A DNA stretch of 63,980 nt, filler included, from Fonticula-like sp. SCN 57-25 (taxonomy: Eukaryota): assembly GCA_001724245.1 (NCBI GenBank). It is 4 parts of 4 records of this genome, joined end to end, with 100 filler letters (N's around TTAATTAATTAA, not from the genome) between each part and the next. Parts side by side here need not be neighbours in the genome. Positions count along the whole stretch, not along the records: positions 48,346 to 63,980 come from MEDX01000136.1; 3 more parts are not named here. The stretch is one strand, 5' to 3'. Of this stretch, positions 20,486-60,804 are shown piece by piece; the stretch's first letter is position 1; each line of letters begins with the position of its first letter. Under the pieces are notes generated by a model, which had not been told where the DNA came from, made no database searches, and saw only the letters and a list, made by a program, of their open reading frames with translations. Both the position numbers and the translations under genes were made by a program.

Positions 20486-21094
20486 TTAACGGTAAGACTT
20501 CTGGAAGCGGGCGCGGGCACCGGGACCGCCGAACTTCTTGGGCTCGCAGCGGCGGGGGTCAGCAACGAGGAGGGTGCGGTCGTAGGCGGTGAAGATGTCC
20601 TTGATCTCCCTCTTCGAGGTCTCATCAACGACTAGACAAGAATTGTCAGTAACGTAAGAATAAATTTCATGCGATGGAGGGCAGCGACAAGAGAAACGGC
20701 AACCGGCGAAACATCACAAATAAAAGAAATCAAATCGATTTGATGTGCGTACACTTCTGGAAGAAAGCGACGAGGGCCTTGGCGATGGCCTGGCGGACGG
20801 CGTACATCTGCGAGGTCTGACCACCACCGGTCACGCGAATGCGGATATCGACACCGCTGAAACGCTCCTTGCCGACAAGGAGGATGGGCTCAGTGACCTT
20901 CTGGCGGAGGATCTCGGGCTGGACGAGATCGAGGGGCCGGCCGTTGACACGGATCATGCCCTTGCCGCGCTTGCAGTGAGCAACCGCGGTCGCGGTTTTC
21001 TGAAAACGACAAGGAAAAGCGGTGAGTCGAGGCACGCACTCAACGCTGCATTAGTGATGCGCACCTTGCGACCGTAAACCTGAACAGCCTCCAT
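20486..21094 (-). CDS. RPS16: 40S ribosomal protein uS9
   Basis: [55 protein letters not shown]. Introns 21000-21064 and 20632-20752; putative 5'UTR intron 21109-21392. Confidence 0.97.
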
Positions 21095-21537
21095 GTTGGG
21101 CAAAGTGCCTAAACACAACAAAACCAAAGGTTAGTCCCGATATATCGATGATGCCCGACACAGAGCACGCAAACACCCCTCCCCGCGCCGCGGATGGCGG
21201 CCACGGCGATGGATGGATGGGATGCAGCCATCCCGCAATCCATCCAGCTCCAAATCCGCCGCAGCCTCCATCCGCATCCGCCAACGCCTCAATCCACCGC
21301 ATCATCCACTCCTCTGCCCGGTCCACGACTGCGAGAGAAGCAGGCGCCGCGCCCTACCCACATATCCCCACTCCCACGACGCCGAGACGTGCCTGCGACT
21401 CGAGCTGAGGTCAAAAGAGAGAGGGTGAGCAATCCAGCAGCGTTCGATCCAAAATCCAACCCCAGATTTTGGGAAATCCGGGGTGGATTCAATTTCATCG
21501 CCCACGCTGTCAGCAAATTCATATTGGACGTTGGCTC

Positions 21538-48345: not shown

Positions 48346-48477
48346 ATTAATACCGTGCGCAACTATTTTAAAGGGGCTTCATGATTCATTTTGCTCCGAA
48401 TCTTCCCGCCAGATCGACGTCCACGTGGACCGTCTGAGGATTCGCGAGCGCACGGAGCTCGCGGGGGCGTGCTGGGC

Positions 48478-50664
48478 ATGCCGATGCGGTACAAGCCGCA
48501 TGCTGCTCTATCCAGCGCTGGCAACGCGAGAGATGTTGCGAGCATATCGCTCAACCGCCTTCGGGCAATGATCTTGCGAAGTTTTTCGCTTTCATATGGT
48601 CTGGCGATCACTCTTCTCGTTCTTGCCAACAACTTTGCCGTTTTCGAGGTTGTAACGTTTGCCGTCATCATTGCCTACAGCTTTTATGTGGCATTTTGGT
48701 CGCGTCGCTTGGAGGACGTCAAATTCCACGGACTTGTACTATTGCTTGTATACAAGGCTTCTCTAAGTGCGCTTCTGTTTCGCTGCGGGGCGGCGACTGC
48801 CATCCACATCTACTTTCACCTTGGCAACTTTGTCTTTCCCTTGCTGGGCGCCACGTTCCGTGGCACGCGACTAGCGCTGTCCATGGCCGCCTACATCATT
48901 GTGGAGACTATTGTTCTGTACGGCATTTCTCCGGCTGAGAGCGCGGACCACTTTGGCCTTCTCGATTTGTCACCTGAGCAGTATTTGTTTGTACGCGTGG
49001 TCGTCGAGATCAACCTTACTATCCTGTCGACCGTCTTTGGCATCTCTTTCCACCTGTACGCCTCCAAGGTAATCACCACGCTTGCGGAAATGTCCGAGGT
49101 GCGCCGTCGCTTCATCTCCAACATGAACCACGAGATCCGCACTCCGCTCGTGGGTGTGCTCGGCATGGCCGAGCTGCTTCTCGCCGAGGAGCAGCTGTCG
49201 CCGTCGCTGCGCAGCAAGCTCGAGGTCATTGCGTCGAGCGGCGAGGCGCTGTTGCACCTCGTCAACAACATTTTGGACCTGAGCCGGATCGAGGCGCAGG
49301 CGGTCGTTCTCGAGCACCGCGCCGTCGACGTCGGACAGCTCGTCTCGGGCGTCCTCGGCATGTTTGAGGCGAGCGCGCTCGCAAAGGGCCTCCAGATGAT
49401 TGCCCACTTTGAGCCTGGCATTCCCGGGCAGATCATGACAGACCCGTACAGACTCATGCAGGTGCTCAACAACCTCGTTGGCAACGCCATAAAGTTCACG
49501 GAGCGCGGCCGCGTCACCATGACCGTCGACGTCCTCGACGCGCTCTGGCAGGACGAAGAAGAAGCTTCCGCAGCGCAGGGCGCGCAGCACCACCACCTTC
49601 CACTTCAACAGGGGCCATCGCTCGACGCGGCCACGAGCGCCGTGCCCGGCCAGCGCTACATCTCCTTCAGTGTCAAGGATACGGGTATCGGCGTCGCGCG
49701 CGGCGACGGCATCATCCTCTTCCAGCCGTTCTCGCAGGCCGACACGAGCACGACGCGGCGATACGGCGGGTCCGGCCTCGGCCTCGCGCTCTGCGCCGAC
49801 ATTGCGCGGCTCATGGGCGGCAAGGTCAGACTCGTCCGCGGCGACGCACCGGGCGCCGAGTTCCAATTTGCGCTGCCGATCATTCTGCCGGAAGACGGCG
49901 AAGGGGAGGCCCTGCCGCTCGGGGAGGGCGGCGAACAACTCTTCTTTGGCAGCGAGAGCGCCACCTCTGACTCGCCTCAAATTGGCAGCGCGCGCGGAAG
50001 CAACGTGGGCGACGCCACGTGGCAAAGGAGTGTCGTATCGGACCGCTTCGGCAGCGAGGAGAGCCTCGCCAGCGCTCGGTCGCAGCGCGCCGCCGCCGCC
50101 GCCGCTGGCGCCCACCAACACCACGTGGCCGCCATCAGCAGCAGCGCCGGCTCAGGCGCGTGGCAACGCACATTGAGCGCCTCGGACGCGTCGCCTGCGA
50201 GCGGCCGGCGGTCCACGCGGCTGCAGGCCAAGGCGCAGGCGCAGGCGGGTGCCCACATGGCCCCGTCTGTCAGCGCCCGCGTGCTCGTTGCAGACGACAA
50301 CCCGGTGAATGCGCTCGTGATGCAGCGGCAAATGGAGCGCATCGGCTACTCGTACACGATTGTCGGGTCCGGGGGCGAGGCCGTGGACGCGTACCTGTCG
50401 GACGACGGGCACACGTATGACGTCATCATCCTCGACTTGGACATGCCTGGGATGGACGGGCTGCAGGCGGCGCGCGCCATTCGGCAGGCCGAGATGGATG
50501 GCGGCAGCGGGCGCAGGGTGCCCATCGTCGGACTGTCCGCGGCAGACCCGGACATTGCGACAGAGTGCAGGAGAGCTGGGATGGACGACGCGCTTGTAAA
50601 GCCGCTCAACATGGCGGCGCTCAAGGAGTGCGTAGAGAGGTACCTGAAGCCAAAACGGCTTTGA
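48478..50664 (+). CDS. membrane hybrid histidine kinase (TM region-HisKA-HATPase-REC)
   Basis: MNHEIRTPL, NLVGNAIKFT, DTGIG, FSQADTSTTRRYGGSGLGL, VADDNPVN..DLDMPGMDG..KP. Intronless; start approximate. Confidence 0.93.
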   Translation: MPMRYKPHAALSSAGNARDVASISLNRLRAMILRSFSLSYGLAITLLVLANNFAVFEVVTFAVIIAYSFYVAFWSRRLEDVKFHGLVLLLVYKASLSALLFRCGAATAIHIYFHLGNFVFPLLGATFRGTRLALSMAAYIIVETIVLYGISPAESADHFGLLDLSPEQYLFVRVVVEINLTILSTVFGISFHLYASKVITTLAEMSEVRRRFISNMNHEIRTPLVGVLGMAELLLAEEQLSPSLRSKLEVIASSGEALLHLVNNILDLSRIEAQAVVLEHRAVDVGQLVSGVLGMFEASALAKGLQMIAHFEPGIPGQIMTDPYRLMQVLNNLVGNAIKFTERGRVTMTVDVLDALWQDEEEASAAQGAQHHHLPLQQGPSLDAATSAVPGQRYISFSVKDTGIGVARGDGIILFQPFSQADTSTTRRYGGSGLGLALCADIARLMGGKVRLVRGDAPGAEFQFALPIILPEDGEGEALPLGEGGEQLFFGSESATSDSPQIGSARGSNVGDATWQRSVVSDRFGSEESLASARSQRAAAAAAGAHQHHVAAISSSAGSGAWQRTLSASDASPASGRRSTRLQAKAQAQAGAHMAPSVSARVLVADDNPVNALVMQRQMERIGYSYTIVGSGGEAVDAYLSDDGHTYDVIILDLDMPGMDGLQAARAIRQAEMDGGSGRRVPIVGLSAADPDIATECRRAGMDDALVKPLNMAALKECVERYLKPKRL

Positions 50665-53547: not shown

Positions 53548-53990
53548 TTATGCTTTCGAGGGGTCCTTTGACCAAGAGACGATGACCTGCTCGTGCTCCC
53601 GCGGAAGCTTTGTGTAGTGCGGGATCTTGTGGATGCCCTTGGTGCCGCTCTTGTTGTACGGGGTGAGACGGACCGTCTTAAAGTACATGTCCTTGCTCTT
53701 CACCGGCTGAGGCGCAGTAGTCGTCTGCCATAACACAGTAAGAAATAATGGGAAAAGGGCGAGTGAACGTACCAGGGCTTTGAGGCCGGGCGCAGTCTGG
53801 GTGATCGCGTCCAGGACGCCGCGCACTTGCGCAAGACGATCGCGAACATTGCGCTTGCGCGTCGGGTTCAGCGACCACGGCACCTTGCTGAAAATACAAA
53901 CAGACATTAGACAATGAGCAGCAATAAGCAGGCGCGCAAAAAGACGCACTGTACGAGACCGCTGAGGGCTGCTACCGTCGACCGAAACAT
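53548..53990 (-). CDS. MRPL31: mitoribosomal large-subunit protein mL60 (yeast MRPL31-like)
   Basis: SGLV.KVPWSLNPTRKRNVRDRL..KDMYF..KGIHKIPHYTK. Two introns. Confidence 0.75.
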
Positions 53991-54134
53991 GATGCCGAGG
54001 ACTAACCACGAGTCGGACGATGATTTGAATCACGGCCACGTGCACTCTTTGATGAATTTACGCGATACCACAGAGTTTTGATATGGCGATTTTACGATAG
54101 AGTTTCCGGATTCTTTTCTCTCCCTTCCACGAGG

Positions 54135-55557
54135 ATGTTGAGCGCGCGTCGTCGGATGGGCGGGCTGGCGTCTGCCGCCATCGCGGCCGGCAGCGCGACC
54201 GTCGTCGCGCCTTCCGCCGCTGGTGCGCTTCGTCAGATGTCCAGCTCGCCGCCGCAGCACGGCGGTAAGGGCTCCCCGCCGGCTGGCGGACGCCCACCAA
54301 AGCGTGCTCAAGACACTGCTCGCTTCCTTCAGAGCCTCGCGGCGGAGGCCGCTGCCGGTGCGGAACCCTCTTCTTCGCCCTCTTTCCATATTTAAAATGT
54401 GCTAACTATGAAGGTACAGCGACGAATAAGCGCATGAATGAGCCGCGCGCGCAGGAGGATCGGTCGCGGGCTGCCAAGGCGCGCCCGACCGAGGACTTTA
54501 CGGGCATGTCTTCCTCGGAGGTGCTTGTGATGATGCTCGAGCGCCGTGCGTTATAAATTTCGCGCTGTGTTTTCCGTTGCTGAACCATTTTTGCGCAGAG
54601 ATCAAGGAGATTGAGGACAGCTTACGCCTTGATCAGCGTGCATTTGCGAATCTTGACCTCGACGAGGAGGCCGATCGGTACCTCGGTGATCACTCGTTCA
54701 CCGTTGATGAGGACCAGGCTTTCACGCTGGCCCGTCTTGCTCAGGCGGACGCGCTTGGCATGAACCTCCGCGAGCGCGCGCGCAGCTCAAAGTCTTATGA
54801 TGGCGAGGGCAACCGCATTGCCGATGACGACGACGACCTCTTCAAGGAGGACGACGGCTCGCTTAACATGGGTGAGGACGACGGCCCGGCGGGCGAGCTG
54901 GCCGACTCGGACGACGAGTCTGGCGTGTCGCACCCCGGCATGCTTGACACTGCCAAGCTGAGCCGCATCGCGCAGTTCCTCGGCAAGAGCGAGGAGGCCG
55001 CCGACTCGGATGACTCGTTCACCGATTCTGCTGTCACCCGGAAGAAGAAGCGCGTCGACCTCAAGAGGCAGTACAAGATTGACATCACGCACAAGGTGCG
55101 CGCTTTTCATTATTTATATTGTGGAAACTGAACGACGACTTGCAGAATCTGGAACTCTTGTCCAACTTTGTCTCGGACACCGGTCGCATCGTCTCGGCCC
55201 GTCAGTCTGGTACGCCCTTCGTTTTATGTTTGGTTTTTACTTCGCGTTTTATCCCCTCTGACTTGTCTGTGCTTTGTAGGCCTCGCGGCGCGTAGCCAGC
55301 GCAAGATCGCGCGCACCATTAAGCGCGCCCGCCACGCCGGCCTTTTGCCGTACCTCGCCAAGCTGCCCGAGTTTGCGCCGTACGAGCACATTGACCACCA
55401 GGGTCTCAAGAACGATGGCGGCGCGGCTGCCTTTGGCAATGTGGCGCGCGATTCGAGCGACTCGGATAGCGACAGCGACAGCGACGACGAGCGCGCCGGC
55501 CGCCCGCACCAGAACGCCGGGCGCAACATGAGCCTCAACGGGAGGCCCGCCCACTAA
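54135..55557 (+). CDS. mitoribosomal small-subunit protein bS18m with long N-terminal extension
   Basis: ITHK|NLELLSNFVSDTGRIVSARQS|GLAARSQRKIARTIKRARHAGLLPY; presequence-like start. Confidence 0.8.
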
Positions 55558-56025: not shown

Positions 56026-57983
<1,958 letters not shown>

Positions 57984-58289: not shown

Positions 58290-59172
58290 TTACTGCAAAG
58301 AGAGAAAGAGTGAGCATTCAAGTAGGAAAGAATTGAGATCAAGCGCACCTTCTTGGCCTTGCCGGTGGTAACCTTGGCCTTCTCGGTACCGCGGACCTTC
58401 TTGGTGCGGTTCTTGCGCTCCTTGCGCTGCTTGCGGGACGTCACCTCGCGCGTGAAGAGACCGATCTGTGATGAGCAGCGTGTTAATGATGGGTTTGCAG
58501 CCGAAATCAATAAAGCGTACGCGGCCGAGGCGGTACTTGGGCTCGAACTTCTTGAGGTCCTCAATGGTGTCGTAGATGAGGCCGAAACCAGTGCTGCGGC
58601 CACCACCGAACTTGCCGGCGAAACCGAAGACGACGACGTTCTCCTTGGGGGCCTTGTAGAGGGCGGCGAGCTTCTCGCGAACCTCATCCTTCGAGAGGTT
58701 GGCCTTGCCGGGGTGGATCACATCAACAACCTAAATTGCAAAAAAACATGCAAAAAAATGAAGAGGCAAAGGAGACGCGAGTGTGAGCAAACCGATCGGG
58801 CGGCACATCGACTCCAAAACGCACAAACTGCTTGCGCTTGAGCAGGCGGTTCGTGATGAACTTACGCGTACGAAGCGTGGCGGTCGCCGAATCAGCCTAC
58901 AAGACAATGGCAAAGCGGATGTCAGCCACAGAACACAGGCATGCGATAGAGCGGGATGCGTCGAGAGGATGCCGCCACCGTGGGCTGCAGACGGCGAGGA
59001 TGGATGCTCCACTTCAGCATCGGGATGACGGATGCGGCATCCACAGTCTATCCCGGCCGAGGCATCATCAAACATCCGCGCGCCCTGCGGCCTCCGGGCA
59101 TCCTCCTCGTTGCATAGCCTAAACCCCGGCCACCCATGCCCAAAACCCAAGCATTGCTGCTGGACGCACCAT
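58290..59172 (-). CDS. RPS24: 40S ribosomal protein eS24
   Basis: [62 protein letters not shown]-only first exon; stop-only last coding exon. Confidence 0.96.
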
Positions 59173-59357
59173 CCTGTCCGTCTGGGATGCGCCTAAGTGA
59201 GAGAGGCCGTCCCAACAGAGGTCACGGCACAAGAAGGATCACAATCTCGATCGCGATCGATCCAAAATTTTCGATCCGGATCGTTTCATTGTACATCACG
59301 GTCCCATCTGCCACTGCGATCCCTCTCTTTACATCGCCGTCGGGGTAACACGCAGGC
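59173..59357. promoter_or_regulatory. RPS24/RPL3 bidirectional promoter
   Basis: 185 nt between divergent ATGs; outward-facing CTCTCT pyrimidine tracts; GATC-rich core containing TCGATCCAAAAT (59257-59268). Confidence 0.7.
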
Positions 59358-60804
59358 ATGGTACGTGCAGGGAAAGGGCATGCTGGACTGTGGGGATGTG
59401 CCAAGTGCGTCGGATGCACCAGGAGATGCGCATGCCGTTTGGATGATGCCTAGATGCTCGCGGTTCCTGATTCTTATGGAGGATGGGTATTGTGCGATGC
59501 GATGGCGCATCCCTGTGCATCCGACCGCTTTGGCGCATCCTCGCAGTGTCCCAGTGGGCATCCATCGCTTTTGTGCAGTTGTCTGATGTGTGTGTGTCTT
59601 TGTTTCATAGTCTCACCGCAAGTACGAGGCCCCGCGCCACGGTTCTCTTGGCTTCAAGCCGCGCAAGCGCGCTGCCCGCCATCGCGGCCGCGTCAAGTCG
59701 TTCCCCCGTGACGACAAGACCAAGCCTTGCCACCTTACCGCTTTCCTCGGTTACAAGGCCGGTATGACTCACATTGTCCGCGATCTTGAGCGCCCTGGCT
59801 CCAAGATGCACAAGAAGGAGATTGTTGAGGCCGTCACCATCATCGAGACCCCGCCGATGACCGCCGTCGGTGTTGTCGGCTACGTCGAGACCCCCCGCGG
59901 TCTCCGTTCGCTCACCACCGTCTGGGCTGAGCACCTCAGCGATGAGGTCCGCCGCCGCTTCTACAAGAACTGGTACAACAGCAAGAAGAAGGCCTTCACC
60001 AAGTACGCCCAGAAGTACACCAAGGACAAGAAGTCGATCGACCGCGAGCTCGAGCGCATCCGCAAGTACTGCACGGTCGTCCGCCTCATCGCCCACACCC
60101 AGATCCGCAAGGCCAAGGGTGTTGGACAGAAGAAGGCCCACATTGCCGAGCTCCAGATCAACGGTGGCTCTGTCGCCGACAAGGTCAAGTTCGCCGTCGA
60201 CCGCTTCGAGAAGGACATCCTTGTCTCGGAGGTCGTCTCCCAGGACGAGCTCATTGACATCATCGGTGTCACCAAGGGTCACGGTTACGAGGGTGTGACC
60301 AAGCGTTGGGGCACGAGCAAGCTCCCGCGCAAGACTCACCGTGGTCTCCGCAAGGTTGCTTGCATTGGTGCGTGGCACCCGGCCCGCGTCAGCTTCACGG
60401 TTGCCCGCGCTGGTCAGGACGGTTACCACCACCGCACTGACGTCAACAAGAAGGTCTACCGCGTCGGCCAGGCCATCCACACCGTTGACGGCAAGGTTAT
60501 CAAGAACAACGCGTCGACTGAGCACGACCTCACCGACAAGAGCATCACCCCTCTCGGTGGCTTCCCCCACTATGGTGTTGTCGACCAGGACTTCATCATG
60601 ATCAAGGGCTCGTGCGTCGGTGTCAAGAAGCGCGTCCTCACCATCCGCCGCTCGCTCCGCACTCACTCCAAGCGCTGGGCTTCGGAGAAGGTCAGCCTCA
60701 AGTTCATCGACACCTCGTCCAAGTTCGGCCACGGCCGCTTCCAGACTGCCGAGGAGAAGAAGAGCTTCATGGGTGCCCTCAAGAAGGACAAGATCGATGC
60801 CTAA
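59358..60804 (+). CDS. RPL3: 60S ribosomal protein uL3
   Basis: [52 protein letters not shown]. Intron 59361-59610. Confidence 0.98.

Follow-up and report, generated by a model that had tools for sequence, protein, structure and literature searches.

Regulatory words and structured introns of ribosomal protein genes

Coordinating the approximately 80 genes for ribosomal proteins (RPs) is a classic regulatory problem. To our knowledge, every well-studied lineage has its own cis-acting word at these genes, with the early-diverging fungi constituting an essentially unexplored group. RP genes of animals, e.g., mouse rpL30, rpL32 and rpS16, carry internal or first-intron promoter elements, and we know of no palindromic array among them. 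With regard to fungi, the accessible part of an earlier survey describes Rap1 sites in Saccharomyces cerevisiae (CACCCNNACA) and in Candida albicans (CATCCANACANCAATAG) as well as the Tbf1 site TTAGGG as elements of the RP regulon (Lavoie et al., 2010; PMC2834713).

On the level of the transcript, structured RP introns have been described for yeast. Zipper stems occur in long introns of the S. cerevisiae genes RPS17B, RPL7A/B and RPS11A, and positional criteria of 10, 20 and 42–85 nt are given for them in the accessible part of the source (Rangan et al., 2025; PMC12350175). In addition, the available portions of further reports describe gene-specific autoregulatory intron structures in yeast RPL7B, RPL18B, RPL28 and RPS22B (10.1101/2025.03.14.643126; PMC13232506), and RPL30 and RPS14B are further autoregulatory yeast RP introns according to the accessible text of a paper citing them (PMC12350175).

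Here, a stretch of DNA of 63,980 nucleotides, in the following termed the window, was analyzed, in which the first introns of three genes for cytosolic RPs, RPL3, RPS24 and RPS16, contain arrays of the word GGATG and its reverse complement CATCC. Animal RP genes resemble this arrangement in that regulatory DNA resides within exon 1 and intron 1, beyond the start site, with the start codon at the end of exon 1, and differ from it in the factors and motifs involved. The yeast autoregulatory RP introns have in common with the introns studied here that an RNA structure is found in the first intron of an RP gene, close to the 5′ end of the pre-mRNA. On the other hand, each of the yeast structures is bound by its own protein, whereas one and the same word and layout recur here at three unrelated RP genes, which is not what a protein-specific autoregulatory structure would show. 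A word common to the genes for L3, S24 and S16 rather points to one common reader than to three cognate proteins.

As far as the accessible part of the survey of fungal RP-regulon elements goes, the likeness consists in a short, multi-copy word with a strong over-representation confined to RP genes, and CATCC makes up the first half of the Rap1 motif of C. albicans; the fungal elements, however, lie upstream of the genes, whereas the sites described here lie inside the first intron in convergent arrays of 8–11 (PMC2834713). The stem in the RPL3 intron has the position given for yeast zipper stems in the accessible part of the source and is more stable than shuffled sequences. The zipper stems have no word in common between genes and their sequence is poorly conserved, whereas GGATG/CATCC is present in all three introns studied here, of which only one fits the positional criteria while that of RPS24 folds at chance level (PMC12350175). 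Our search of the open-access literature yielded no description of such a GGATG/CATCC element in RP introns.

Word arrays in the first introns of three cytosolic ribosomal protein genes

Introns in the window are of the fungal type (GTRNGT...CTRAY...YAG), and the GC content is about 0.57. RPL3 was identified by its match to Ribosomal_L3 (Pfam, E 5e-182), and the protein encoded by its exon 2 is 72–78% identical to L3 of early-diverging fungi. Since the RPL3 protein shares at most 78% identity with any database protein and its best named matches (72–76% identity) stem from the early-diverging fungi Syncephalis, Basidiobolus, Calcarisporiella and chytrids, the uncultured host is a deep-branching fungal lineage. 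The window derives from a metagenome, and DNA nearly identical to it occurs in several other metagenomes. Near-identical DNA of the same organism is present in two metagenome runs (X2 and X5), with strain differences in run X2 amounting to five within 59209–59752 (record 13) and two within 58978–59184 (record 12). RPS24 and RPL3 are arranged head-to-head with 185 bp between them. RNA contigs of another run (X11) join 58465 to 58521 and 58292 to 58349, i.e., the last two short introns of RPS24 are spliced out, while the RNA contigs of runs X8 and X11 extend into neither the first exons nor the first introns. The positions of all features are compiled in Table 1; the 5′ boundary of the RPS16 first intron is inferred, being either GTGGGT at 21361 or GTGGGG 8 nt upstream, and branch points throughout are predicted from CTRAY. 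In RPL3, the putative branch site CTGAT places the A 24–25 nt from the 3′ splice site.

Table 1. Positions of genes, first introns and sequence elements in the window.
Feature	Position	Strand	Description	Basis
RPL3 start codon	59358-59360	+	ATG	
RPL3 first intron	59361..59610	+	250 nt, adjoins ATG, GTACGT...CATAG	sequence, fold z −4.90
RPL3 stem, 5′ arm	59384..59432	+	GGATG at 59394 and 59412, AGATG at 59425	fold, inverted repeat
RPL3 stem, 3′ arm	59506..59553	+	CATCC at 59508, 59518 and 59536	fold, inverted repeat
RPL3 exon 2	59611..60804	+	all remaining coding sequence and stop codon	Pfam Ribosomal_L3
RPS24 start codon	59172-59170	-	ATG, inside GGATGG	
RPS24 first intron	58897..59169	-	273 nt, adjoins ATG; predicted branch site CTGAC	sequence
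RPS24 exons 2–5	58290..58896	-		Pfam Ribosomal_S24e
RPS24 short introns	58731-58824, 58466-58520, 58293-58348	-	94, 55 and 56 nt	
RPS16 first intron	~21109..21361	-	~253 nt, probably in 5′UTR; predicted branch site CTAAC	
RPS16 central hairpin	21190..21275	-	23 bp, 5 bulged nt; arms GCGGATGG...CCATCCGC, apex GGGATGGCTGCATCCC	fold, inverted repeat
RPS16 (uS9) start codon	21094-21092	-		
RPS16 (uS9) coding exons	20489..21094	-		Pfam Ribosomal_S9, E 4e-24
RPS16 short introns	21000-21064, 20632-20752	-	65 and 121 nt	
Palindrome GATCCAAAATTTTCGATC	59259..59276	.	contains GATCCAAAAT; in the 185-bp RPS24/RPL3 divergent intergenic region	inverted-repeat and word search
Second copy of GATCCAAAAT	21446..21455	.	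only other copy in the window; ~85 nt upstream of the RPS16 intron 5′ end	word search

The first introns of the three cytosolic RP genes are 250–273 nt in length and thereby 2–5 times longer than the seven other definable introns of the window (52–121 nt). Their sense strands are rich in G (0.33–0.40; 0.37–0.48 in the 5′ halves) when compared with the short introns (0.14–0.31). GGATG/CATCC is the top-enriched 5-mer, with 27 occurrences in the 775 nt of the three introns versus 122 in the other 63.2 kb (18.3-fold), and GGATGC is enriched 32-fold. Over the window as a whole, the totals are near the expectation from composition (GGATG 66 vs. 63 expected, CATCC 83 vs. 72) and GGATGC occurs at chance level (46 vs. 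45). Scanning the 64 kb for clusters of at least four sites revealed four, three of which, comprising 8–12 sites, are the RP first introns, while the fourth, with 4 sites, is situated inside a histidine-kinase ORF. Pfam supports a further 24 gene loci in the window, two mitochondrial RP genes among them, none of which contains a cluster, and only one site was found in the seven short introns altogether. The earlier note, according to which the pattern is present in no other gene, is borne out by this distribution of 3/3 versus 0/24, which corresponds to a calculated 1 in 2925 for the 64-kb window. Over-representation at RP genes, as expected of a transcription-factor site of an RP regulon, holds within the same window.

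On the sense strand, four GGATG are followed by four CATCC in the RPL3 intron, three GGATG (four including the copy at the start codon) by seven CATCC in the RPS24 intron and five GGATG by four CATCC in the RPS16 intron. Every GGATG is located ahead of every CATCC in each of the three introns, and the calculated chance of three such perfect same-sense orderings is approximately 6e-6 when overlapping sites are merged. The long first intron and common motif polarity claimed earlier for the cytosolic RP genes are thus found in 3/3. Most sites are isolated and their flanks differ. In RPS24, CATCC sites exceed the intronic GGATG sites by four, leaving copies without partner, and lone additional copies of GGATGC closely flank the introns, at 59185 and 21556. 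Sense-strand 8-mers common to the RP introns are GATGATGC in the 5′ halves and CATCCATC in the 3′ halves; these do not lie opposite one another in the RPL3 stem.

In complete agreement with the earlier observation that the three introns lack alignable sequence, comparing them with each other and with the rest of the 64-kb window yielded no alignable similarity (matches of at most 15 nt), and TRF detected no tandem array in either of the RP intron regions. A scan of the whole window against Rfam at gathering thresholds returned no match, and with E values up to 10 only miRNA-precursor-like matches appeared. As these score 14–24 bits and thus far below the gathering scores of 38–168, they reflect generic hairpin shape. 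The two known sources against which the element was to be checked, a known Rfam snoRNA and a dispersed MITE family, are accordingly not encountered: the window contains neither an Rfam snoRNA at gathering thresholds nor similar copies of the introns. The array is a gene-class-specific element in the first introns of the three cytosolic RP genes.

Other candidates were rejected on individual grounds. For a C/D-box snoRNA, with GATGATGC as C box and CUGA as D box, the spacing is too short, RPS16 lacks CUGA and Rfam gives no match. A microsatellite was discarded on the basis of the TRF result. A Rap1-type full site does not apply, since CATCCNNACA is matched by a single one of the 27 sites, and the link to Gcr1/CATCC-type sites was judged not transferable to this element.

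With regard to related loci, metagenome contigs provided 67 RPL3 loci, all of them distant (best-segment identity of at most 79%), and none of the 67 has a cluster of at least five GGATG/CATCC sites. Neither a 34-nt exact-match probe taken from the RPL3 arm nor the RPL3 protein matched in genome contigs, nor did the protein match in viral contigs. One other fungus (loci L063–L065 and L067) shares the position of the RPL3 intron immediately after the ATG, so the intron itself is old. The intron of this fungus comprises 189 nt and is G-rich, with a single GGATG, no CATCC, no hairpin and a fold z of +0.67. First introns of this long, G-rich kind may be common among RP genes in this region of the tree; the palindromic array appears specific to this organism in the sequences compared so far.

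These findings bear on an origin of the array as the remnant of a mobile element, be it an insertion of the foldback or MITE type or an introner-like element. An inverted-repeat architecture with sub-repeated arms is also seen in foldback elements, but the three copies are dissimilar to each other and to the rest of the 64 kb, the window contains them solely in first introns of RP genes, and the post-ATG intron position is common to another fungus, which makes such an origin extremely improbable. Alternatively, word and hairpin could be a functionless by-product, with G-rich low-complexity sequence of the GGAT type, together with local inverted duplications of it, accumulating wherever a very strongly transcribed gene has a long first intron. 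The G-richness of the sense strands, not found in the short introns, is in line with this view, as are the RPS16 runs GGATGGATGGGATG and CATCCCATCCATCC that resemble slippage products, and the long G-rich intron with GGATGGATCGGATTGG, but without hairpin, at the same RPL3 position of the different fungus. Nevertheless, we regard a neutral origin as improbable, because the sites do not form a tandem array detectable by TRF, are mostly isolated with different flanks, and because the same top 5-mer with the same polarity is unlikely to arise in three unalignable introns without constraint.

Folding of the introns

The RPL3 intron folds with a minimum free energy (MFE) of −115.2 kcal/mol versus −91.4 ± 4.9 kcal/mol for dinucleotide shuffles (z −4.90, 0/200 as good), and with the GGATG/CATCC cores held fixed and the rest shuffled z is still −4.29 (0/200). 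The MFE structure contains a 35-bp stem with at most 5 bulged nt (intron positions 24–59 and 155–193) and a further 10-bp segment, and the inverted-repeat search returned arms of 38 nt (59387–59424 and 59510–59547; 76% Watson-Crick). The long stem and all three pairings originally quoted for this intron proved correct: 59387–59404 pairs 18/18 with 59530–59547, three G-U wobbles included, GTCGGATGCAC (59409–59419) is the exact reverse complement of 59515–59525, and AGGAGATGCGC (59422–59432) pairs with GCGCATCCCT (59506–59515) with one A bulged. The fold is rod-like, its 78 nested pairs being reached by 1.3% of the shuffles.

The situation is different for RPS24, the intron of which has a fold energy at the level of its shuffles (z −0.01; +0.15 with the cores fixed, +0.20 with exon context added), and inverted-repeat and stem searches detected no long clean duplex in it. 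Its MFE structure is marginally rod-like; 4.7% of the shuffles attain its number of 75 nested pairs. The region around the RPS24 start codon can pair with the intron (59169–59184 with 58988–59003, 14/16). For the RPS16 intron, z is −3.05 in sense and −2.75 with the cores fixed, while its 43 nested MFE pairs are ordinary (reached by 57% of shuffles). Word and polarity generalize to all three RP introns; the long, unusually stable hairpin does not. The long hairpins that had been ascribed to all three genes are therefore absent as a common trait, with RPS24 at a z of about 0 and RPS16 offering only its 23-bp central hairpin. Used as a test of the RP introns, fold z-scores give a mixed picture, with RPL3 and RPS16 below their shuffles and RPS24 level with them. 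Stability does not track the motif, as RPS24 has the densest array without excess stability.

Sense and antisense z-scores are −4.90 and −2.81 for RPL3, −0.01 and −1.88 for RPS24 and −3.05 and −3.92 for RPS16, i.e., there is no consistent advantage of the sense strand and the values are better on the antisense strand for RPS16 and RPS24. Counted in gapless arm alignments of the sense strand, G·U and A·C stand at 8:3, a difference that is not significant, with RPL3 alone at 4:1; in the aligned RPL3 arms, G·U occupies 4 of 9 non-Watson-Crick positions. The argument from G-U pairs is confounded because the sense strands are rich in G, and an excess of G·U in the arms is suggestive at most as a sign of selection on RNA. 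The proposal that sense-strand G-U pairs document such selection has consequently lost most of its weight, also in view of the better antisense scores of RPS16 and RPS24.

The structural distance from the 5′ splice site to the predicted branch point is short (18–22 steps) and in none of the three introns shorter than in shuffles. Equally short distances occur in shuffles of these GC-rich introns. When the zipper-stem criteria from the accessible part of the source are applied, with branch points being predicted, RPL3 lies within them (35 bp; 23 + 33 = 56 nt), RPS24 misses them narrowly, with 16-bp stems giving either a total of 88 nt or a branch-point distance of 15 nt, and RPS16 lies outside with 145 nt (PMC12350175). 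Because it fits the published positions, the RPL3 stem probably helps splicing of the over-long intron.

A long, near-continuous duplex such as the RPL3 stem could also serve as a small-RNA precursor, the intronic hairpins being diced into mirtron-like or milRNA-like small RNAs, and the only sub-threshold Rfam similarities are indeed to miRNA precursor models. These similarities, at 14–24 bits versus gathering scores of 52–168, are however those of a generic hairpin, RPS24 offers no long clean duplex and the proposal gives no reason for RP genes in particular as hosts, so we consider it very unlikely.

Reading of the word on DNA or on RNA

Among the mechanisms listed in the earlier note, i.e., a splicing switch, a small-RNA precursor and convergent transcription-factor sites, the last is ranked first here. 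Tentatively, and with somewhat less than even confidence, we favor the view that selection acts on the GGATG word itself, which is read on DNA as an array of transcription-factor sites downstream of the start, with the convergent layout rendering the pre-mRNA self-complementary. The array of GGATG, often GGATGC, in the 5′ part of the intron and the array of CATCC in the 3′ part would be read on double-stranded DNA as a cluster of short sites for a putative RP-regulon factor. Located just downstream of the transcription start, such a cluster would act as an intronic or downstream enhancer. Convergent placement of the sites would make the pre-mRNA self-complementary, a complementarity that in RPL3 appears to have been extended well past the word into a stem of 35–45 bp; selection may then have tightened it into a zipper stem where this was useful for splicing a long intron. 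This combination of a DNA-selected word, convergent sites and a later zipper stem fits all evidence.

A reading on DNA is favored by the 18.3-fold enrichment together with the restriction of dense clusters to RP first introns. Both orientations preserve the exact core to the same extent, RPS24 has surplus unpartnered copies and GGATGC recurs outside the introns. The densest array is without excess stability, no strand has a consistent advantage and the common 8-mers GATGATGC and CATCCATC do not pair with each other within the stem of RPL3. On the other side, a plain transcription-factor array does not predict strict polarity, and complementarity reaches far past the cores in RPL3 (z −4.29) and more weakly so in RPS16 (−2.75). 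The extended C. albicans Rap1-type motif is hardly represented, only three genes are concerned and the intron of the other fungus at the same RPL3 position lacks the array.

A further point against the reading on DNA is a separate upstream word at RP genes. GATCCAAAAT occurs twice in the window, both times at RP genes, with 0.13 copies expected and 0/100 shuffles containing at least two. GATCCAAAAT could be the actual promoter element. Alternatively to the reading on DNA, a sequence-specific RNA element has been considered, in which a pre-mRNA hairpin of GGAUG:CAUCC modules is read by a common trans-factor and co-regulates splicing, retention or decay of RP pre-mRNAs, either as a splicing switch or as a site at which unspliced RNA and lariats are cut by an RNase III-type enzyme. 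Perfect polarity of GGAUG before CAUCC in 3/3 introns is in accordance with this proposal, as are an RPL3 stem that is stable past the cores and rod-like, the marginal rod-likeness of the RPS24 fold, the RPS16 central hairpin with its z of −2.75 at fixed cores and the G·U pairs of the RPL3 arms. Yeast RP introns, according to the accessible parts of the sources, do make use of zipper stems and autoregulatory structures (PMC12350175; 10.1101/2025.03.14.643126; PMC13232506). Conversely, the fold energy of RPS24 is at chance, only one of three introns satisfies the zipper-stem positions, none of the three has a splice-site-to-branch-point distance below that of shuffles, the G·U to A·C ratio is not significant and the surplus CATCC sites have no partners. 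In addition, the cores are exact in both arms, though pairing alone would tolerate wobble variants. Weighing these points, we consider an element of this kind possible but doubtful. Still less likely, in our view, is the far-reaching version in which this deep-branching fungal lineage co-regulates its whole RP regulon post-transcriptionally, with one trans-acting factor reading the first-intron GGAUG:CAUCC duplex units and setting splicing or decay of all RP pre-mRNAs.

The GGATG/CATCC array represents a candidate regulon word that is unusual in two respects, namely its location inside the first intron and its palindromic arrangement, by which the pre-mRNA is shaped as well. Reading on DNA would make it a further example of rewiring of the RP regulon, here through downstream enhancers in a fungus. 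Reading on RNA would make it the first intronic RNA element shared on the sequence level across an RP regulon; we know of no RNA-level RP-regulon module of such kind described for any eukaryote, and a true RNA module would be the RNA-level counterpart of transcriptional regulons of the Rap1/Tbf1 type. Either way, these introns offer a clean test of how constraints on the DNA level and constraints on the RNA level can share one and the same sequence.

A candidate promoter word upstream of ribosomal-protein genes

With regard to the sequences preceding the ribosomal-protein (RP) genes, the word GATCCAAAAT is present at only two sites in the 64-kb window vs. 0.13 expected, and both are located immediately upstream of RP genes. 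In the divergent promoter of RPS24 and RPL3, it forms part of the palindrome GATCCAAAATTTTCGATC. GATCCAAAAT is a candidate RP promoter element, similar to the yeast RRPE/Sfp1 words of the AAAATTTT type.

Features and their coordinates (window positions except in the last row)
Feature	Position
Palindrome GATCCAAAATTTTCGATC, containing one copy of GATCCAAAAT	59259-59276
GATCCAAAAT, second copy	21446-21455
RPS24/RPL3 gene pair	58290-60804
RPS24 exon 1 end plus first intron base	59169-59184
Complementary RPS24 intron segment	58988-59003
RPS24 last intron	within 58290-58348
RPS16 5'UTR intron, candidate 5' splice sites	21355-21370
GTAGGG	21357
GTGGGT	21361
GTGGGG	21369
Neighbouring genes (reported together)	56748-57980; 48385-50661; 53551-54057; 55132-55554
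GGATG/CATCC cluster in histidine-kinase ORF	50427-50579
RPL3 locus of another fungus, example	L064:2809-3000

Gene starts, introns and splice sites

RPS24 and RPL3 form a head-to-head pair whose start codons are only 185 bp apart, and in both genes the long first intron begins directly after the start codon, which in RPS24 is enclosed by GGATGG. The last 15 nt of RPS24 exon 1 together with the first intron base are complementary (14/16) to a stretch of the intron lying 165 nt further downstream, a pairing that is absent from the RPS24 MFE folds. The last RPS24 intron (56 nt) lies directly 5' of the TAA stop codon, which thus opens the final exon; this junction is backed by an RNA contig from sequencing run X11. 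Among the candidate 5' splice sites of the RPS16 5'UTR intron, either GTGGGT or GTAGGG would cause the spliced leader to retain or gain an upstream ATG; GTGGGG would do neither.

Neighbouring genes and the source organism

Among the neighbouring genes, one encodes an ATP-sulfurylase fused to an APS-kinase and another a hybrid histidine kinase carrying a receiver domain; two more code for mitochondrial ribosomal proteins (mL31-like and bS18-like). Neither of the latter two genes carries the motif array, i.e., GGATG copies followed by CATCC copies, and the sole other small GGATG/CATCC cluster, comprising four sites, is situated inside the histidine-kinase ORF.

Metagenomic RPL3 loci of another fungus (L063-L065 and L067) feature ATG followed by GTACGT and a 189-nt intron at the same position as in RPL3 of the window. 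This intron is very G-rich, includes GGATGGATCGGATTGG, lacks the CATCC arm and yields a fold z of +0.67 against shuffled sequences.

The source organism is a deep-branching fungus lacking close relatives among named species, and its RPL3 shares at most 78% identity with any protein in the searched collection. Metagenome runs of bioreactor, aquatic and 'fungus' origin contain DNA near-identical to the window.
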